52,969 bases of DNA from a virus (Duplodnaviria; Heunggongvirae; Uroviricota; Caudoviricetes): IMG/VR virus record IMGVR_UViG_2718217885_000014, positions 1 through 52,969 of that record; one strand, 5' to 3'. Of the stretch, positions 3,709 through 51,715 are shown piece after piece (position 1 is the stretch's first letter; each line of letters opens with the position of its first letter). Position numbers and translations under genes: made by a program. The notes below the pieces were generated by a model. That model worked only from the letters and a program-made list of their open reading frames with translations, was not told the DNA's origin and did no database searches.

Positions 3709-3729
3709 TTTCAAAATATTCCGCCATTT

Positions 3730-3780
3730 GCTCCCAATGCAAAACATATATTGCATTGGGAGCATATTCATATTTTTGTT
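3730..3780 (+). terminator. rho-independent terminator downstream of hydrolase gene
   Basis: Perfect 12-bp inverted repeat GCTCCCAATGCA / TGCATTGGGAGC at 3730-3741 and 3752-3763, followed by a T-run at 3772-3778. Confidence 0.55.
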
Positions 3781-3891: not shown

Positions 3892-4128
3892 TCAATATAC
3901 ATTTTGCACCTTCGAGATAGTAATGGCTGTTACTGTAATATGAGTTACAAACAGCTTCATACCCAGAGCTACTGATGTATCAACACGATTCAACAATACC
4001 CGATATTTATTCCATGCCTCCAGCAACGATGTTTCTTCCTCCGTTGTGATTTCCAGGTCTACAGCATCCTGAAGTGGCGCAATATGCTCACTGGCTATCT
4101 GTATCACATAAAACTGCAACACCCGCAT
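3892..4128 (-). pseudogene. tail fibre assembly protein remnant (tfaX-like fragment)
   Basis: 78-aa ORF containing a motif remembered from Tfa-family proteins ([17 protein letters not shown]) but lacking the rest of a Tfa protein; lies just distal to the intact tfa. Confidence 0.35.
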
Positions 4129-4408
4129 TGCTGCCTGCAGCCCCCGAAAACATGACCGACATCATTAGGGTGAACATCGTCAGCCCCTGTATACAGCTGC
4201 CTGTTACTGCTGTTCACCACATCACGCATATCAACAAACGGGAGATTCAGCGTGGAGCAGCATTCCATTATGGCTACACGAACAGTATCAAGTTTCGCTG
4301 TATGACTCAGTGGTGTTGCCGGGCCAATTGTAACTTCGCGATTTTTTCTGGGCTAATTGACGTATAATTCTGGGCGGAAAGCGCGCCCAAAAAGCCCGGA
4401 ATTGACCG

Positions 4409-26852: not shown

Positions 26853-27029
26853 TGTTCATTCCACGGACAAAAACAGAGAAAGGAAACGACAAAGGCCAAA
26901 AAGCCCGTTTTCAGCACCTGTCGTTTCCTTTCTTTTCAGGGGGTATTTTAAATAAAAACATTAAGTTACGACGAAGAAGAACGGAAACACCTTAAACCGG
27001 AAAATTTTCATAAATAGCGAAAACCCGCG

Positions 27030-33685: not shown

Positions 33686-33762
33686 TGGCGCGTTGTACTG
33701 GATTCGAACCAGTGACCGATTGCTTAGAAGGCAATTGCTCTGTCCGACTGAGCTAACAACGC
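33686..33762 (-). tRNA. tRNA-Arg (anticodon UCU)
   Basis: 77-nt cloverleaf folded by hand: acceptor GCGTTGT/ACAACGC, D-arm GCTC/GAGC, anticodon stem ATTGC/GCAAT with loop CTTCTAA, T-loop TTCGAAT, encoded CCA. Confidence 0.8.
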
Positions 33763-33775
33763 ATGATGCAGATAA

Positions 33776-33856
33776 TGGACCGCCATCGAGGACTCGAACC
33801 CCGCACCAACAACCCTGTTATCGTGTCGTCTGCTCTTCCTGATGAGCTAATGGCGG
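33776..33856 (-). tRNA. tRNA-like gene with atypical anticodon arm (anticodon not assignable; possibly degenerate)
   Basis: Acceptor CCGCCAT/ATGGCGG, D-arm GCTC/GAGC, T-arm CGGGG-TTCGAGT-CCTCG and CCA are canonical, but 27 nt lie between D and T arms and no standard 5-7-5 anticodon stem-loop could be folded by hand. Confidence 0.45.
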
Positions 33857-33863
33857 TATGTTA

Positions 33864-33939
33864 TGGTGGCCCTTGCTGGATTTGAACCAGCGACCTGGCG
33901 ATTATGAGTCGCTCGCTCTCACCACTGAGCTAAAGGGCC
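33864..33939 (-). tRNA. tRNA with CAU anticodon (Met, or Ile2 if lysidine-modified, as ileZ of phage 933W)
   Basis: 76-nt cloverleaf: acceptor GGCCCTT/AAGGGCC, D-arm GCTC-AGTGGTGA-GAGC, anticodon loop CTCATAA, T-loop TTCAAAT, CCA. Confidence 0.8.
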
Positions 33940-42671: not shown

Positions 42672-43831
42672 TTACGCCCCCTTACCTCTGAAGAGTTCAG
42701 CGACGAATGAATAAGACGGGCAAGAAATGCCGCATCGTTAATTCGGTCATACAGACTTACAGCCAGCGGTGATTCAGCTTTTTCCAGCATGGGATAAAGC
42801 TGCTGCAACCAGACCTGATGAATTGATGAAATGTAGGAATAGAGTACGCTGGCGTTATGTGCAACGTCGCTCGGTACAGCGGGCTTTGAAAGCTGTTTCT
42901 CCATCTGGTTAAAGGCATTGATGTATGCCTCCTTGAACTGGGCTGCACGTTTGCCAGTGAAGCCCATTGCCAAGAACGCGAAGCCGTCGCGGGTGATGTG
43001 GTAGCAAGGAAGTTTGCGAGTACCGCCGTTGGGCTGGTGTACCCAAATTGATGTCTCCGCAAAATTGCGGGCACAAAACTCTGGAGAACAATCCAAAATG
43101 CGGATCTTTTTCAGAACATCGTCATGACGTTTAGAGAAGAAGTCAGCAACAGCCAAAGAAGATGTAACAGCCTGACCATCAACGATGGCAATTTCAGGTT
43201 GAGAGAGGGTTGGGAGAGTAGTCATGGTGACAGCCCCGGTAGTCAGTTTTTCAGAAAACTCACCACATGGGACGCCAATCACAGAGGTGGTGAGACGTAC
43301 AGGGTTGGCGTTACCGGAGACTACCGAACCCGGCCCGACCGAAGTCGGCCCTGTACGCCCCACCATAATTTGGGCGTAGCAATGCTCATGACACGAAAAA
43401 ACCGCATGAGCGCGGTTATGCTCAGTAATCAATTTCAGGACGCCAATCCCGGCACCCGTTTTATAAGGTGCCTGAACAGTGTAACGTCCCGGAATGGCAG
43501 AATCAATGTGCTGGTGGTCCTTCACACTCAACAAAATCACGCCTGAATTTCCACAAAGGACTAAAGCACTCATGCGGGTAGTCTTTGCGAAGATAGATAA
43601 CGCGCTGTGTATCTGGTTCCCAACGAATAACATGGACATAAAGCCCTCTTCCGTCACGAAACCAGCGGTTAAGTTCCTGCACAACTCGCCCCCCACAGTC
43701 AGGTAAAGTTCTCTGTGGTTACTTACAGCCAGGTGATTTGGTAATCTGCATTCATGCCGTAACAACAGGAGTTCAGCGACGCTGACCACCAGCTGTTGCG
43801 ACAAACGGTTATTTGCCGTTAAACTGTTCAT
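42668..43831 (-). CDS. Rha-family phage regulatory protein with about 200-aa N-terminal extension (possible alternative start at 43225)
   Basis: 387-aa ORF; residues from about 203 (MTTLPTLSQPEIAIVDGQAVTSSLAVADFFSKRHDDVLKKIRILDC) resemble the Phage_pRha domain; start ATG overlaps the stop of the upstream gene, supporting the long form; ATG at 43223-43225 would give 185 aa. Confidence 0.6.
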   Translation of the reverse strand: MNSLTANNRLSQQLVVSVAELLLLRHECRLPNHLAVSNHRELYLTVGGELCRNLTAGFVTEEGFMSMLFVGNQIHSALSIFAKTTRMSALVLCGNSGVILLSVKDHQHIDSAIPGRYTVQAPYKTGAGIGVLKLITEHNRAHAVFSCHEHCYAQIMVGRTGPTSVGPGSVVSGNANPVRLTTSVIGVPCGEFSEKLTTGAVTMTTLPTLSQPEIAIVDGQAVTSSLAVADFFSKRHDDVLKKIRILDCSPEFCARNFAETSIWVHQPNGGTRKLPCYHITRDGFAFLAMGFTGKRAAQFKEAYINAFNQMEKQLSKPAVPSDVAHNASVLYSYISSIHQVWLQQLYPMLEKAESPLAVSLYDRINDAAFLARLIHSSLNSSEVRGRK

Positions 43832-44698: not shown

Positions 44699-44741
44699 AT
44701 AATGCTACTTAAAGTAGCGAATTGCAACTACTTAAAATAGA
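44699..44741. promoter_or_regulatory. OR operator/promoter region (PR for cro, putative PRM for cI)
   Basis: Pseudo-palindrome GCTACTTAAAGTAGC (44704-44718) and related CTACTTAAAATAG (44728-44740); minus-strand PR: -35 TTGCAA (44722-44727), 17-nt spacer, -10 CATTAT (44699-44704); plus-strand TAAAAT (44733-44738) 5 nt before the cI ATG suggests a leaderless cI transcript. Confidence 0.6.
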
Positions 44742-46504: not shown

Positions 46505-46541
46505 CTACTTTTTGTAGTTGATTTTTGCAACTTTAAGTAGC
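46505..46541. promoter_or_regulatory. OL operator/PL promoter region
   Basis: CTACTTTTTGTAG (46505-46517) and AACTTTAAGTAGC (46529-46541) share the CTAC..GTAG arms of the OR sites; possible plus-strand promoter TTGATT-17-CAATAT. Confidence 0.5.
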
Positions 46542-46669
46542 AATATCATTTTACCGACAACGAACAGGCAGGACGCCCACGAAGTAGCCGCCTGGGGCAT
46601 ATGAAGTCCAGGATGATTCGTTGAGTCATGTTGTGCCACTAGGCACTCATGTTAAAGCAGGTGTATGAA

Positions 46670-46945
46670 ATGAAAGTCCAGATTTTAAACAATAACTGTG
46701 AAGTCGTTTGGTCATACGACATAGCCGCCCCTGTAGATCAGAGCGGCGATAGCTGGACCAATGGGAAACATCAGATTATGGCTGGAGTTGTGTTCTCTTT
46801 ACGCCGTGCTTTGGAACAGGCTGAAGTATTTCCATCAGACCCTGAATGGAAATGGCCTTTTTCTATTTGTCCAAATTCGGAGAGCACATTTCAGAAAATT
46901 GGTCAGAAAGTCGCACTCGAAGAGCATCAGCCAACTGTTTCCTGA
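46670..46945 (+). CDS. hypothetical protein, first ORF after PL
   Basis: 92 aa from ATG 46670 with AGGTG Shine-Dalgarno; no recognisable family. Confidence 0.4.
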   Translation: MKVQILNNNCEVVWSYDIAAPVDQSGDSWTNGKHQIMAGVVFSLRRALEQAEVFPSDPEWKWPFSICPNSESTFQKIGQKVALEEHQPTVS

Positions 46946-47108
46946 TTTTTTCAGGTAACTCGTCGGCATCGCAGAAACAACAACGCTCGATCATGTTGAA
47001 AGCCGATTCGTAGAACTGTTTCTGCTGAGTGTCGCTGAGACAGGAAAAGAGCGACGTTACGATGATTTTATTAATTGCATTATCAAGTTCTTTTTCATCA
47101 AAAGTCAT
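46863..47108 (-). CDS. hypothetical protein, convergent with and overlapping the previous ORF
   Basis: 81-aa ORF with AAGGA Shine-Dalgarno; Cys-rich (CCFCD); overlaps 46670-46945 by 83 bp on the opposite strand, so one of the two may be spurious. Confidence 0.35.
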   Translation of the reverse strand: MTFDEKELDNAINKIIVTSLFSCLSDTQQKQFYESAFNMIERCCFCDADELPEKIRKQLADALRVRLSDQFSEMCSPNLDK

Positions 47109-47527
47109 TTGATTTTCCTTTTATGTATACGGGCTTAAAAGGATACCACCGAGCCTGAAGTGGTGAAAAGACAGGCACATAACAGCTAAGTATTTTCAAC
47201 CAAAGAGAATCCTTAGCGTTGTGGTGAATGCGGCTCAGCGCACGCGGGTTAAGGTTGAGGCTGACAGTCGACCTTCTGTGGATACCCACCCGTCTGGTGT
47301 GCAACCTTCGCCAGGCACCGGGAGGCACCCGACACCACAACTTTATGCTGTGTGTAGTCCTGGCGGTACCAGTTTGTACCCTTGCTTCCGGCTGGTACCG
47401 TCCTTTTTACAAAACAGAGAAGAGCATCACCGGACGACGGGCTCATAACCCAATCCAACCGGGCGGCTGCCACCGCAGGTGTTCTTCTCTGTTTTGTGGA
47501 GAAACCAACCGACCTTGCAGGGTCGAT

Positions 47528-47908
47528 ATGATGAGGAGCAGCAAAATGGCTAGCGAACGCAGTACTGATGTGCAGGCATTTATCGGGGAGCTGGACGGCG
47601 GCGTATTTGAAACCAAAATCGGCGCAGTTCTCAGTGAAGTCGCTTCCGGTGTGATGAACACGAAAACCAAAGGGAAGGTCTCACTCAACCTGGAAATCGA
47701 ACCATTTGATGAGAACCGTGTGAAAATCAAACACAAACTCTCATATGTTCGCCCGACTAACCGCGGGAAAATTTCCGAAGAAGACACCACCGAAACGCCG
47801 ATGTATGTCAATCGCGGTGGTCGCCTGACTATTCTGCAGGAAGACCAGGGACAATTACTGACTCTTGCCGGTGAACCTGACGGAAAACTACGCGCAGCAG
47901 GTCATTAA
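47528..47908 (+). CDS. hypothetical early-left protein (YfdP-like)
   Basis: About 126 aa from ATG 47528 (MMRSSKMASERSTDVQAFIGELDGGVFETKIGAVLSEV); the upstream 100 codons of the track ORF look non-coding. Confidence 0.6.
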   Translation: MMRSSKMASERSTDVQAFIGELDGGVFETKIGAVLSEVASGVMNTKTKGKVSLNLEIEPFDENRVKIKHKLSYVRPTNRGKISEEDTTETPMYVNRGGRLTILQEDQGQLLTLAGEPDGKLRAAGH

Positions 47909-47973
47909 TATCGTTCTTAATTAACTGATTATTTATCTCATCACTGAATATCTTTATATAGTGAGGACTTATT

Positions 47974-48798
47974 ATGTCTCAGAACTTAGACGCAACCGCA
48001 ATTAATCAAATCCATGCCCTTATTTCTGCTCAGGGTGTTAATGAAATTATCAGTAAGATTGGTGCCGATGCTGTGGCATTGCCTGAGAATTTCCGCATTC
48101 ATGATCTGGAAAAATTTAATTTAAATCGTTTCCGTTTCCGTGGTGCGCTTTCCACTGCAAGCATCGATGACTTTACCCGTTATTCTAAAGATCTTGCAGA
48201 TGAAGGCACCCGCTGCTTTATCGATGCTGATAATATGCGTGCCGTCAGTGTGCTTAACCTGGGTACTATTGATGAACCAGGTCACGCAGATAACACCGCC
48301 ACTCTCAAACTGAAAAAGACAGCACCGTTCTCTGCTCTGTTGTCTGTTAATGGCGAGCGTAACTCCCAGAAATCACTGGCAGAATGGATTGAAGACTGGG
48401 CCGACTACCTTGTGGGCTTTGATACTAATGGTGACACCATTCAGGCAACAAAAGCGGCTGCGGCGGTCCGTAAAATCACGATTGAAGCGAACCAGACCGC
48501 TGATTTTGAAGATAATGACTTCAGCGGCAAACGCTCTCTGATGGAGTCTGTCGAAGCGAAAACCAAAGACATTATGCCAGTGGCATTTGAATTTAAATGC
48601 GTTCCGTTTGAAGGCCTGAAAGAACGTCCGTTTAAATTACGCCTCAGCATTATCACTGGCGATCGTCCTGTACTGGTTCTGCGCATTATTCAGCTGGAAG
48701 CGGTGCAGGAAGAAATGGCTAACGAATTTCGTGATCTGCTTGTTGAGAAATTCAAAGACAGCAAAGTAGAAACCTTCATTGGTACTTTCAGCGCCTGA
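47974..48798 (+). CDS. yfdQ: DUF2303-type prophage protein (YfdQ-like)
   Basis: 274 aa, the length remembered for K-12 YfdQ; gene order YfdP-Q-R-S-T preserved. Confidence 0.6.
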
Positions 48799-48926
48799 TT
48801 TCATTACTGCAAATGCCCCTGCGGGGGCATTTATGGAAACATAATCGACTCAATAATCGCCGGATGGTGAGGGCTTCCTTTTACCAGAATTCAGCGTGGT
48901 GCAGCACATATAACGTGGAGAACAAT

Positions 48927-49463
48927 ATGCCATTTATTAAAACTTTTTCTGGGAAGCATTTTTATTATGACAAGATAAATAAAGACGACATCGTGATTAA
49001 CGATATCGCGGTTTCCCTTTCAAATATCTGTCGCTTTGCAGGACATCTTTCACACTTCTACAGCGTCGCCCAACATGCGGTGCTTTGCAGCCAACTGGTA
49101 CCGCAGGAATTTGCTTTTGAAGCGTTAATGCATGATGCAACAGAAGCGTATTGTCAGGACATCCCCGCGCCACTGAAACGCCTTCTTCCTGACTATAAAC
49201 GGATGGAAGAAAAAATAGACGCCGTAATCCGTGAGAAATACGGGTTACCCCCAGTTATGAGTACGCCCGTGAAATATGCCGATCTTATCATGCTGGCAAC
49301 CGAACGCCGCGATCTCGGGCTTGATGATGGCTCTTTCTGGCCTGTACTGGAAGGCATCCCGGCAACAGAGATGTTCAACGTGATTCCACTGGCACCTAGC
49401 CATGCCTACGGGATGTTTATGGAACGTTTTAACGAGTTATCGGAGTTACGCAAATGCGCATGA
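48927..49463 (+). CDS. yfdR: HD-domain phosphohydrolase (YfdR-like)
   Basis: 178 aa from ATG 48927 (GGAG Shine-Dalgarno); HD motif region (HLSHFYSVAQHAVLCSQLV...ALMHDATEAY). Confidence 0.7.
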   Translation: MPFIKTFSGKHFYYDKINKDDIVINDIAVSLSNICRFAGHLSHFYSVAQHAVLCSQLVPQEFAFEALMHDATEAYCQDIPAPLKRLLPDYKRMEEKIDAVIREKYGLPPVMSTPVKYADLIMLATERRDLGLDDGSFWPVLEGIPATEMFNVIPLAPSHAYGMFMERFNELSELRKCA

Positions 49464-49816
49464 ATGTTTTCGAAATGGAAGGGTTTCTTCGCGGGAAATG
49501 TGTACCGCGAGATCTGAAAGTGAACGAAACAAACGCTGAGTACCTGGTACGTAAATTCGACGCGCTTGAAGCTAAATGTGCGGCACTGGAAAACAAAATA
49601 ATACCAGTGTCAGCTGAACTGCCACCAGCAAATGAAAGTGTTCTGTTATTTGATGCTAACGGAGAAGGCTGGCTGATTGGCTGGCGTTCTCTCTGGTACA
49701 CCTGGGGACAAAAAGAAACCGGAGAATGGCAGTGGACATTTCAGGTCGGGGACCTTGAAAACTTCAATATCACTCACTGGGCAGTAATGCCAAAAGCGCC
49801 GGAGGCTGGAGCATAA
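49454..49816 (+). CDS. yfdS: DUF551-type prophage protein (YfdS-like)
   Basis: 120-aa ORF, matching the length and position remembered for K-12 YfdS. Confidence 0.6.
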   Translation: MRMNVFEMEGFLRGKCVPRDLKVNETNAEYLVRKFDALEAKCAALENKIIPVSAELPPANESVLLFDANGEGWLIGWRSLWYTWGQKETGEWQWTFQVGDLENFNITHWAVMPKAPEAGA

Positions 49817-50121
49817 TGACCACATTTACCAATAAAGAACTAATTAAAGAAATCAAAGAACGAATCAGCAGCCTAGAGGTTCGAGACGATATTGAGCGCC
49901 GTGCTTATGAAATCGCACTCGTATCTCTGGAAGTAGAGCCAGATGAACGCGAAGCCTATGAATTATTCATGGAAAAGCGTTTCGGTGACTTAGTAGATCG
50001 TCGGAGAGCAAAAAACGGCGATAACGAATACATGGCATGGGATATGACTCTCGGTTGGATCGTCTGGCAGCAACGAGCTGGTATCCATTTTTCAACAATG
50101 ACACAGCAAGAGGTGAAATAA
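49816..50121 (+). CDS. yfdT: hypothetical prophage protein (YfdT-like)
   Basis: 101-aa ORF; its stop overlaps the xis start (TAATG). Confidence 0.6.
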   Translation: MTTFTNKELIKEIKERISSLEVRDDIERRAYEIALVSLEVEPDEREAYELFMEKRFGDLVDRRRAKNGDNEYMAWDMTLGWIVWQQRAGIHFSTMTQQEVK

Positions 50122-50471
50122 TGGAGCCATACAGCCTCACACTCGATGAGGCCTGTCATTTTCTCAAGATATCCAGACCGACTGCCATTAATTGGATACG
50201 CACAGGGCGTCTTCAGGCAACACGCAAAGATCCCACTAAGAATAAATCTCCTTACCTCACAACACGACAAGCCTGCATTGCGGCTCTTCAGTCTCCGCTG
50301 CATACTGTCCAGGTGAGCGCGGGTGATGGCATAACAGAGGAAAGAAAATGTCACTCTTCCGCAGAGGTGAAATATGGTACGCCAGTTTCACATTGCCGAA
50401 CGGAAAAAGATTTAAACAGTCTCTTGGAACAAAGGACAAAAGGCAGGCGACAGAACTCCATGACAAGCTAA
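50121..50471 (+). CDS. xis: excisionase (AlpA/HTH_17-like)
   Basis: 116 aa from ATG 50121 (AGGTGA Shine-Dalgarno); HTH region [26 protein letters not shown]; 3' end overlaps the integrase start. Confidence 0.65.
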
Positions 50472-51511
50472 AGGCTGAAGCATGGCGGGTCAGCAAACTT
50501 GGTGAAATACCTGATATAACGTTCGAGGAAGCGTGTGTCAGGTGGCTTGAAGAGAAAGCACATAAAAAATCACTGGACGATGACAAAAGCCGGATCGGAT
50601 TCTGGCTTCAACATTTCGCAGGAATGCAACTAAGAGACATTACTGAATCAAAAATTTATTCAGCAATGCAGAAAATGACGAACCGGCGTCATGAGGAAAA
50701 CTGGAAACTCAGGGCAGAAGCATGCAGAAAAAAAGGGAAACCTGTTCCAGAATACACGCCAAAACCAGCGTCCGTTGCAACGAAGGCTACGCATCTTTCA
50801 TTTATAAAGGCCCTACTAAGAGCCGCAGAGCGTGAATGGAAAATGCTGGATAAGACACCAATTATTAAAGTGCCTCAACCAAAGAATAAACGGATCCGCT
50901 GGCTGGAGCCTCATGAAGCACAAAGGCTGATTGATGAATGTCCGGAGCCATTAAAGTCTGTTGTTGAATTTGCACTGGCAACAGGCTTAAGACGCTCGAA
51001 CATCATCAACCTTGAATGGCAACAAATAGATATGCAGCGCCGGGTGGCATGGATAAACCCGGAAGAGAGTAAATCAAACCGCGCAATTGGCGTTGCGCTG
51101 AATGATACTGCATGTCGCATATTGAAAAAACAAATAGGGAATCATCACCGTTGGGTATTTGTGTACAAGGAAAGCTGTACCAAACCAGACGGAACAAAAG
51201 CGCCAACAGTAAGGAAGATGCGGTATGACGCAAACACAGCCTGGAAAGCGGCGCTGAGACGGGCTGGTATTGATGATTTCAGATTTCACGACTTGAGACA
51301 CACCTGGGCAAGTTGGCTGGTTCAAGCCGGAGTCCCGTTGTCAGTGTTACAGGAAATGGGAGGCTGGGAGTCTATCGAAATGGTTCGTCGATATGCTCAC
51401 CTTGCACCTAATCACCTTACCGAACACGCACGGCAAATAGACTCGATCCTGATCCCATCGGTCCCAAATTTGTCCCAGTCAAAAAATAAGGAAGGTACTA
51501 ATGATGTGTAA
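50348..51511 (+). CDS. int: tyrosine site-specific integrase
   Basis: 387 aa; C-terminal catalytic region with R...HDLRHT...Y motifs ([26 protein letters not shown]); ends 14 nt before the 3' end of thrW. Confidence 0.9.
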
Positions 51512-51525
51512 CTTATTGATTTAGA

Positions 51526-51601
51526 TGGTGCCGATAATAGGAGTCGAACCTACGACCTTCGCATTACGAATGCGCTGCTCTACCAACTGAGCTATATCGG
51601 C
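51526..51601 (-). tRNA. thrW: tRNA-Thr (anticodon CGU), thrW; prophage attachment site
   Basis: 76-nt cloverleaf with anticodon loop TTCGTAA and encoded CCA; sequence matches E. coli thrW from memory; integrase converges on its 3' end. Confidence 0.85.
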
Positions 51602-51715
51602 CCTGAAAGGACATGTTCACGAACGTGAATCACGGTGGACAAGGTTAAAACTAACCGGGCGATGCGTCAATGGCCTTGTGAATCAAATGGCTACTTTTGC
51701 ATCACCCGGTTTTAT

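Follow-up and report, generated by a model that had tools for sequence, protein, structure and literature searches.

Introduction

STnc100 and PasD are abundant prophage small RNAs (sRNAs) that normally lie between the Q gene and the lysis genes, and PasD has been recovered bound to Hfq (bioRxiv 10.64898/2026.05.13.724894). RprA, an sRNA under Rcs control, is active in a processed form made of its last 47 nt (PMC9262595). Here we describe a leader that recalls both, found at positions 47160-47527 of a viral DNA stretch of 52,969 nucleotides (IMG/VR record IMGVR_UViG_2718217885_000014; the whole stretch is called the window). The window is a lambdoid prophage of the SfV/ST64B type at tRNA-Thr, adjoining proA, with a cI-like repressor and an early-left operon (orf33, yfdP, yfdQ, yfdR ... 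xis, int) on the plus strand. The element lies between a short leftward open reading frame (ORF; 46863-47108) and yfdP (ATG at 47546).

The closest systems for the downstream part of this leader are of another kind. RNase III needs a helix of about 20 bp, as found in the lambda N leader and in T7 sites. The lambda N leader, T7 R1-R5 and the metY-rimP-nusA-infB leader all resemble our locus in having a helix of at least 20 bp between the promoter-proximal RNA or terminator and the first ORF, and the metY operon also shares the order of tRNA-like RNA, terminator, long stem and ORFs. In our locus, however, the long stem is the base of a three-way junction whose core is conserved, not a simple bulged hairpin, its cleavage is putative, and no sequence similarity to the metY leader extends beyond a 14-nt segment of tRNAfMet. 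A further parallel is the thrS operator of E. coli, which binds ThrRS: there too a hairpin in the 5' untranslated region (UTR), near the ribosome-binding site, copies the anticodon stem-loop of a specific tRNA. The tRNA copied in our leader is, however, the initiator and not tRNAThr.

Two structured RNAs in the early-left leader

Our reading, to which we assign a probability of roughly 60%, is that the early-left leader contains two independent structured RNAs on the plus strand: an sRNA unit that mimics RprA (module A), followed by an RNase III-type leader that mimics tRNAfMet (module B). An earlier note on this DNA, made from its letters alone, had proposed one GC-rich structured non-coding element. 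Its view that the region is structured RNA rather than spacer is borne out by folding and covariation, and the GC content is indeed higher (0.56-0.58 at 47200-47500 versus 0.38-0.46 in the flanks). The single element, however, has to be replaced by two modules. As judged from their distribution, these are separable: phage phiES15, with downstream genes kil and gam, has module A without module B, and Stx2c phages share only 47361-47560, that is the terminator and module B, and have a different module A interior. All or part of the leader is present in 2863 of 5426 complete E. coli genomes, as well as in phages SfV, SfII, SfIV, ST64B (which matches 47204-47509), LLS and the Stx2c group.

A three-way junction with conserved pairing

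Module B and the sequence that links it to yfdP comprise the following features:
47409-47497, plus strand: module B, a three-way junction
47409-47428 / 47478-47497, plus strand: P1, the closing stem of 20 bp
47430-47433 / 47459-47462, plus strand: P2
47436-47456, plus strand: near-invariant 21-nt core GACGGGCUCAUAACCCAAUCC, inside P2
47439-47441 / 47449-47451, plus strand: GGG/CCC stem with loop CUCAUAA and CAU at 47444-47446, which mimics the anticodon arm of initiator tRNA
47463-47466 / 47473-47476, plus strand: P3, of variable length among homologues
47510-47525, plus strand: P4, hairpin CGACCU-UGCA-GGGUCG (-8.5 kcal/mol), between module B and the yfdP ribosome-binding site
47533-47538, plus strand: Shine-Dalgarno sequence GAGGAG
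47546-47548, plus strand: annotated yfdP start ATG, with extra in-frame ATGs at 47528 and 47531

P1 is the inverted repeat of the earlier note. The 14 bp reported there (CAAAACAGAGAAGA, 47410-47423; TCTTCTCTGTTTTG, 47483-47496) are real, and the repeat is longer than claimed: 15 bp are perfect (ACAAAACAGAGAAGA, 47409-47423; TCTTCTCTGTTTTGT, 47483-47497), and with G·U pairs it extends to the 20-bp helix (18 Watson-Crick and two G·U pairs). The 53-kb window has three loci with perfect 14-mer inverted repeats whose arms are no more than 100 nt apart; dinucleotide shuffles yield 0.025 on average, and such repeats turned up in 4 of 200. RNA folding, one of the checks suggested in the note, gave a minimum free energy (MFE) of -43.5 kcal/mol for 47409-47497, with z = -6.4. 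P1 has the length and make-up of an RNase III substrate (at least 20 bp, about two turns, mostly Watson-Crick).

Comparison with related prophages, another of those checks, revealed a structure conserved with compensatory changes. In 48 distinct early-left homologues, 95% of the alignment cells are paired and ten pairs show double changes. Covariation is found in P1, P2 and P3, and none of 500 shuffles reaches the observed score; in controls with slid partners, pairing falls to 37-53%. An independent RNAalifold prediction likewise contains P1, P2 and the anticodon-arm mimic, together with two of the four pairs at the base of P3. P2 covaries at all six variable pairs across early-left, holin and Acidobacteria contexts, and P1 of the relatives has one frequent internal mismatch (column 12/106). 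Several G·U pairs are conserved (U20·G98 in 41 of the 48 sequences, G4·U114 in 15, G17·U101 in 8), and the functional strand is therefore the plus strand. Hairpins are also retained at the position of P4, with other stems (for instance GGCGGUGGCAGCCGCC, GGCUGUGUCAGCAGCC and AGCGCCUGUGCAGAGGCGCU). The loops of P3 (47463-47476) and P4 (47510-47525) recur as UUGCAG/UGGCAG or UCCUAAC among hairpins that otherwise differ, which hints at sequence-specific loop contacts.

The same data bear on two readings in which module B would not be a functional RNA. One is that the inverted repeat acts as DNA, be it an operator, a recombination site or an origin, for which a perfect repeat of 15 bp counts; the earlier note had likewise considered a protein-binding site. 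Since the conserved G·U pairs would turn into A·C mismatches if read on the opposite strand, this is unlikely. The other is that the region is a functionless remnant of a phage tRNA, as might be suspected from tRNA-like inserts at the module A position in two relatives (contigs L094 and L100) and from the real tRNA genes in lambdoid late leaders and, in this window, at 33686-33939. The strand asymmetry of the G·U pairs, the variable length of P3 and the fact that the stems covary rather than conserve sequence, around a near-invariant core, all go against either view, and the presence of the element across genera and in half of the complete E. coli genomes argues for selection. We regard both as very improbable.

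A coding function seems more improbable still. The earlier note had seen no convincing ORF; in the strict sense this was mistaken, as a frame of 226 codons (47228-47908) is open and in frame with yfdP, but the comparative data do argue against coding. An N-terminal extension of YfdP, or a decayed gene, would agree with the frameshifted pseudogene called here by PGAP, with a longer coding sequence annotated at this place in phage 118970_sal3, and with the profile of the YfdP family (phrog_204), which reaches 17 residues upstream of the annotated start. However, homologues differ in length by numbers not divisible by three (module B measures 90, 91, 92, 98, 109 or 115 nt), substitutions are compensatory within helices, G·U pairs included, unrelated genes are preceded by the same RNA modules, and the terminator of module A falls inside the open frame. 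Separately, a short upstream ORF after P1 (GUG 47496 to UGA 47531) was considered and discarded, as its frame is unconserved among relatives when compared by eye.

Module B had no Rfam match in the window or in 11 homologous loci. The exact core is found in more than 120 viral contigs, in 26 species genomes across Enterobacterales, in one Acidobacteria prophage and in further metagenome contigs, in a homologue sample that exact-core searches bias towards unchanged cores. Module B is present in one copy per genome, and no second copy of either module was found in the window or after PR. In loci of the early-left type it follows the terminator directly, with a constant 28 nt between the last T of the run and the A of core ACGGG. 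Where the first gene is YfdP, RdgC-like or a holin, fewer than 50 nt separate the end of the junction from its start codon; in loci that lack yfdP and yfdQ, the first gene is YfdR or xis-like and its start is further off. A second type of module B, with a short P1, precedes lambda-type holins; in one late operon (L164) the order is Q, PR', tR', small ORF, terminator, motif and holin. As the first gene differs, module B is tied to operon leaders and not to yfdP, and since the downstream genes are unrelated, it cannot serve autoregulation by the downstream product.

The initiator-tRNA-like core

Within the core, CGGGCTCATAACCC is identical to the metY tRNAfMet over 14 nt, and three consecutive G-C pairs close the CUCAUAA loop, as in the anticodon arm of initiator tRNA. 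The core occurs once in the window, where none is expected by chance, and scores 61.9 bits with a covariance model (R1). With flanks fixed, the only loop variants are CUCAUUA, CUCAUUC, UUCAUAA and CCCAUAA; CAU and the GGG/CCC stem are invariant. A tRNA gene in this region was rejected after a negative ARAGORN search.

The probable partner of the mimic is a factor that reads tRNAfMet, for example the 30S P site together with IF3, a tRNAfMet-specific nuclease such as VapC or, possibly, MetRS. Two specific versions of this idea were weighed. In the first, module B would be a translational operator of the first cistron, in which the mimic occupies the 30S P site or binds MetRS and tunes initiation. 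The P site and IF3 inspect the three G-C pairs and the CAU of initiator tRNA, which are precisely the invariant features of the core; the short distance between junction and start codon before yfdP, rdgC or holin genes fits as well, and start codons are doubled or multiplied in several downstream genes, as in the MKM holins and, within this window, ATG ATG ... ATG. Nevertheless, we consider such an operator unlikely: P-site mimics are, to our knowledge, without precedent in bacterial leaders, core and start are separated by anything from 58 to 135 nt, and the complementarity between loop and start is just 3-6 nt, not clearly above background when counted by eye. The CUCAUAA loop could likewise pair with start-codon contexts or with module A over only 3-6 nt, which is unconvincing.

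In the second version, the mimic would be a decoy or sensor for a tRNAfMet nuclease such as the enteric VapC (MvpT), cut out of abundant early and late transcripts by RNase III in P1 and protecting the initiator tRNA during infection or induction. VapC cuts tRNAfMet at the A38-C39 step, and the 14-nt identity includes this step. Extreme conservation of the core, even in an Acidobacteria prophage, is what one would expect when a universally conserved molecule is mimicked; no phage operons are transcribed more heavily than the two whose leaders carry the motif, and the long P1 could permit excision of a junction fragment of some tens of nucleotides. The proposal is purely inferential, however. 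Loop positions 37 and 38, by the cleavage site, vary (AA, UA, UC), holin-type copies lack a long P1, and the phage tRNA decoys known so far are full tRNAs (PMC11555353). We thus view a decoy as rather improbable.

An sRNA-like unit upstream of the junction

Module A comprises the following features:
47204-47408 (approximate), plus strand: module A, a multi-hairpin domain, a single-stranded seed and an intrinsic terminator
47218-47226 / 47333-47341, plus strand: closing helix GUUGUGGUG / CACCACAAC, 9 bp, around five hairpins in the MFE fold (47218-47341, 124 nt)
47318-47331, plus strand: hairpin CCGGG-AGGCA-CCCG, one of the five inside the closing helix
47346-47359, plus strand: single-stranded seed UGCUGUGUGUAGUC; aligned with K-12 rprA, it is identical to the conserved seed with which processed RprA begins
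47362-47372 / 47392-47402, plus strand: terminator stem GGCGGUACCAG / CUGGUACCGUC, 11 bp in the fold, with a 19-nt loop and a U tract at 47404-47408
47145-47164, plus strand: small conserved hairpin ACCACCGAGCCUGAAGUGGU, then GAAAAGACAGGC, with a weak fold (-5.1 kcal/mol); possible 5' part of the sRNA unit

The covariance-model scan proposed in the earlier note gave no Rfam match in this region at the gathering threshold, and for module A the only sub-threshold match was to STnc100 (RF02076), in permissive mode, at 47196-47411 (32.1 bits, E = 4.2e-5, model positions 1-206 of 206). Everything else in the permissive scan of the region was noise (HCV_5BSL1, ftsZ-DE, DicF, hairpin ribozyme). Homologues score 35-41 bits as STnc100; the matches in phiES15 (40.6) and sal3 (37.5) are full-length, and that in ST64B (35) is partial. 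The alignment to the model shows the architecture of STnc100, and the MFE fold agrees: a closing helix with UGGUGAAU, the hairpin CCGGGAGGCACCCGG, a linker and a terminator. Module A resembles STnc100 in the UGGUG/CACCA of the closing helix, in the CCGGGAGGCACCCGG hairpin directly stacked on this helix and in the single-stranded linker; like STnc100 and PasD, it is borne by a prophage directly before a long phage operon. In contrast, its middle hairpins differ, and the linker, which holds the seed, is RprA-like. From its sequence, module A is read as a divergent member of the STnc100/PasD family with an RprA-type seed. An identity with PasB was also considered and rejected because PasB lies among structural genes.

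The relationship with RprA is confined to the 3' part of this RNA. No Rfam match to RprA (RF00034) was obtained in 46900-47700 at E values up to 10, and the 70 bits of family membership are not reached; phiES15 scores 41 bits as RprA. In RprA, a conserved single-stranded UUGCUGUGUGUAGUC stands next to a rho-independent terminator; in our locus, UGCUGUGUGUAGUC is followed by the terminator at 47362-47408. The identity between phage RNAs and the RprA 3' region spans 14-19 nt, and only that region aligns: in phiES15 and LLS up to 19 nt are shared, together with the beginning of the terminator, and one further homologue (L089) shares CAACGAAUUGCUGUGUG. The 5' two-thirds of RprA, including the region that pairs with rpoS, are replaced in module A by the STnc100-like domain, and module A is encoded by a prophage and not at the core-genome rprA locus.

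Across 17 aligned homologues the seed shows little or no variation, while the terminators differ in sequence and length. It has perfect complementarity over 13 nt to ACUACACACAGCA in the csgD 5' UTR, as is the case for RprA, and the predicted duplex with csgD reaches -25.6 kcal/mol, compared with -17.4 ± 2.9 for shuffles. Inside the window, seed targets showed no excess (4 matches versus 3.8 expected).

The terminator folds at -20.5 kcal/mol (z = -3.7), and the stem is followed by CCUUUUU; both stem and CCUUUUU are retained in all homologues despite changes in stem sequence and length. A consensus terminator scan missed 47362-47408, whose loop exceeds 8 nt. The GGTACC motifs pointed out in the earlier note are present (47365-47370 and 47394-47399), but they have no separate significance: they are simply the arms of the terminator. 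A GTACCC lies beside them at 47376-47381. The resemblance of GGCGGTAC to GGCGGTAG suggested an RfaH ops element, a candidate rejected on the grounds that the terminator arm is unconserved in sequence.

In homologues of the LLS/Klebsiella type, the stem CCGGG/CCCGG is swapped for GGUGG/CCACC, with three pairs changed and the same AGGCA loop; the covariation of module A has few independent lineages behind it. The interior of the closing helix is hypervariable between phages. The hairpin ACCACCGNGCCUGAWGUGGU plus UAAAAGCAGGC (47145-47164 here; 2142-2175 in the relative L007) is conserved 5' of the RprA-like seed in many phages with different interiors, and in LLS this hairpin lies about 10 nt after the PL start. 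On the minus strand, 47145-47164 is a weak terminator-like site just upstream of a leftward ORF of 81 amino acids.

Relatives offer further observations on this family. In the IMG/VR contigs L094 and L100, the STnc100-like interior is replaced at the module A position by a tRNA-like sequence enclosed in GUUGUGG...CCACAAC; D and T arms (the latter GGUUCGAGUCC) can be recognised in the insert, next to an anticodon-like CAU loop that bears an additional hairpin, but ARAGORN does not call it. These inserts suggest that the closing helix is the equivalent of an acceptor stem and that the family is tRNA-derived. A second element with a long stem, absent from this window, lies upstream of module A in other relatives (L007 2240-2330, L215, L229 and L232); its 3' arm (AGUGCUCUUUCC-GUUGUGG) includes the 5' strand of the module A closing helix. 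GUUGUGG is therefore able to pair upstream or downstream in those relatives, which makes a structural switch possible. As to RprA itself, nucleotides 30-45 of the K-12 molecule (GCAUGGAAAUCCCCUG; L205) resemble the STnc100 consensus GcaUGGUGAAUCCCCCuG, and both ACAAC and the seed are common to RprA and the phage RNAs. A kinship with this prophage RNA family is possible, with RprA as a reduced form.

The PL leader and antitermination

The earlier note had placed the element at the head of the early-left operon, where lambda has nutL and N. An early-left leader it is, with the following promoter features, whose hexamers were read by eye:
46520-46548, plus strand: predicted early-left promoter PL, with -35 TTGATT, a 17-nt spacer and -10 CAATAT
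46520-46548, plus strand: operator-like repeats TACTTTTTGTAG and CAACTTTAAGTAGC, overlapping PL

The half-sites of these repeats match a palindrome, GCTACTTAAAGTAGC, in the cI-cro intergenic region (44704-44718). The structured region, however, lies 650-940 nt 3' of the predicted PL, after orf33; with a start some 650 nt into the PL transcript, the position is not that of nutL.

Antitermination deserves consideration because N is not recognisable in this phage group. The element as a whole, or module B within it, could be a processive antitermination RNA like HK022 put or nut, which would modify RNA polymerase and promote read-through of early-left and late terminators; it shares with them the condition of a cis-encoded structured RNA in the PL leader of such a phage. 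A put-like mechanism has been suggested for the relative LLS (PMC12315714). The leader does contain a terminator, and the motif is found in the leaders of both classic antiterminated operons, early-left and late.

The details do not agree with such a role, which we judge improbable. The known put RNAs are two-stem-loop structures of about 70 nt, placed upstream of terminators and with copies after PL and PR. Module B, in contrast, follows the first terminator, the very one that it would need to suppress, at least 650 nt from PL; the fold is dissimilar, and there is one motif copy per genome, none of them after PR/cro. In a blastn-short comparison, the element shared only chance 7-nt words with HK022 putL/putR, and the short words in common with put lie in the PL-proximal leader, where the predicted fold differs. 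The element lacks a boxA, and the combination of boxA (YGCUCUUWA) and boxB hairpin, as in lambda nut, was not found in the PL leader. The only boxA-like match in 46550-47560, with one mismatch (TTCTCTTTA at 46793), is inside orf33 and at chance level, given the 18 such matches on the plus strand of the whole window; UGCUCUU in the P1 3' arm of relatives reads UGUUCUU here and is base-paired. Furthermore, no strong plus-strand terminators were detected in 47500-51700, late operons already have a Q gene upstream of the motif, and STnc100 and PasD have been reported as discrete sRNA species, which suggests that their own terminators work.

A separate observation concerns the start of the PL transcript. 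From the predicted +1, a block of about 65 nt (AACGAACAGGCAGGACGCCCACGAAGUAGCCGCCUGGGGCAUAUGAAGUCCAGGAUGAUUCGUU; 46559-46623, plus strand) is conserved and is identical behind at least four different immunity/promoter regions. In the ST64B version, a hairpin shows a compensatory change (CCUGG/CCAGG to CCGGU/ACCGG), and in some relatives a hairpin and a consensus boxA (GCUCUUUAACAA) follow the block. It shares CGAAC.GG and CAGGAUGA with HK022 putL/putR; a homology to put was rejected, as the predicted fold and the ST64B covariation place CAGGAUGA in a stem and not in the apical loop, where put has it.

A model for the leader and its difficulties

In the reading that we favour, the leader would separate the promoter-proximal PL transcript from yfdP-yfdQ-yfdR...xis-int. 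The 124-nt domain of module A would be closed like a tRNA acceptor stem, and polymerases that stop at 47408 would release an sRNA of about 200 nt; a shorter form might arise by processing, as in RprA. Probably with the help of Hfq, the sRNA would base-pair with the csgD leader and other targets of RprA, and the prophage would thereby tap the RprA regulon of the host. Read-through RNA would fold module B directly before the yfdP ribosome-binding site. By analogy with the lambda N leader and T7, the 20-bp P1 is most likely a processing or stability element of the RNase III type: cleavage in P1 would free the operon mRNA from the upstream sRNA and terminator and set its 5' end.

A number of observations weigh against this proposal. 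Neither module was found described in the literature. For module A, the STnc100 score lies below the gathering score of 47, so that family membership is not attained by score, and the position, in an early-left leader downstream of the repressor, is not the usual site of STnc100 between Q and lysis genes. The seed flank in the window, UUUAUG, lacks the rpoS-pairing part of RprA. A promoter scan found no convincing sigma-70 promoter just 5' of module A in the window, and the sRNA may therefore exist only after induction from PL. The sequence at that place is AAGACA-17-TATTTT (8/12 by eye); one Stx2c-phage homologue has a near-consensus promoter, TTGACA-18-TACATT, directly 5' of the closing helix. 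For module B, the tRNA resemblance is limited to the anticodon arm, with no D or T arms, loop positions 32, 33, 37 and 38 vary, and neither ARAGORN, whose three real tRNAs lie in other parts of the window, nor the tRNA model of Rfam gave a hit in the region. The long P1 is specific to the early-left type; in holin-type and Acidobacteria copies P1 has only 5-10 bp, and RNase III cleavage cannot therefore be the conserved function of the core. Lastly, the K-12 prophage CPS-53 (L130, 3248-3604) has lost both modules, which makes K-12 datasets uninformative on both RNAs. In CPS-53, the leader 5' of yfdP is replaced by unrelated repeat-rich sequence, and only TTATGATGAGGAGCAGCAAAATGG is kept.

Other features of the window

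Further observations were made outside the leader. The leftward ORF that precedes it (46863-47108, minus strand) overlaps by 83 bp an ORF on the opposite strand (46649-46945, plus). Each is an end-to-end match to its own PHROG family, phrog_3311 and phrog_3195, respectively, both of unknown function, and the plus-strand ORF is the one annotated in SfV and RefSeq. In the early-right region, in or beside a gene for a Rha-family regulator, a C4 antisense RNA (82 bits; 43283-43370, minus strand) and isrK (60 bits; 43395-43471, minus strand) lie side by side, and the same pair is found in ST64B and in one Stx2c phage. An IS009 RNA family match (3971-4168, minus strand) is barely above threshold, with 120.6 bits versus a gathering score of 117; a perfect 14-bp inverted repeat lies nearby (3729-3764). 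A second perfect inverted repeat of 15 bp is found at 26877-26934 (AGAAAGGAAACGACA / TGTCGTTTCCTTTCT, arms 28 nt apart).

Significance

Neither module is annotated, even though the leader is present, wholly or partly, in about half of complete E. coli genomes and in many genera of Enterobacterales. Expression of module A would mean that temperate phages of the SfV/ST64B/LLS group produce an sRNA whose seed is exactly the one that RprA directs against csgD. Prophages would then interfere with the formation of curli and biofilms and with the Rcs/RpoS network, and through this family a core-genome sRNA would become connected to STnc100/PasD. A bolder formulation, which we put forward only tentatively and consider doubtful, is that module B represents an undescribed and widespread class of phage leader RNAs that act by tRNAfMet mimicry, through 30S docking or as a VapC decoy, and that module A is a csgD-repressing mimic of RprA, from which RprA itself possibly descended.

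Module B would be a new structured RNA family in phage biology. The pairing of terminator and motif in early-left and late leaders may be a clue to the organisation of read-through in lambdoid phages without N. The core, as a copy of the part of tRNAfMet that is inspected by the P site, IF3 and VapC, would provide a handle on how phages control or protect translation initiation.

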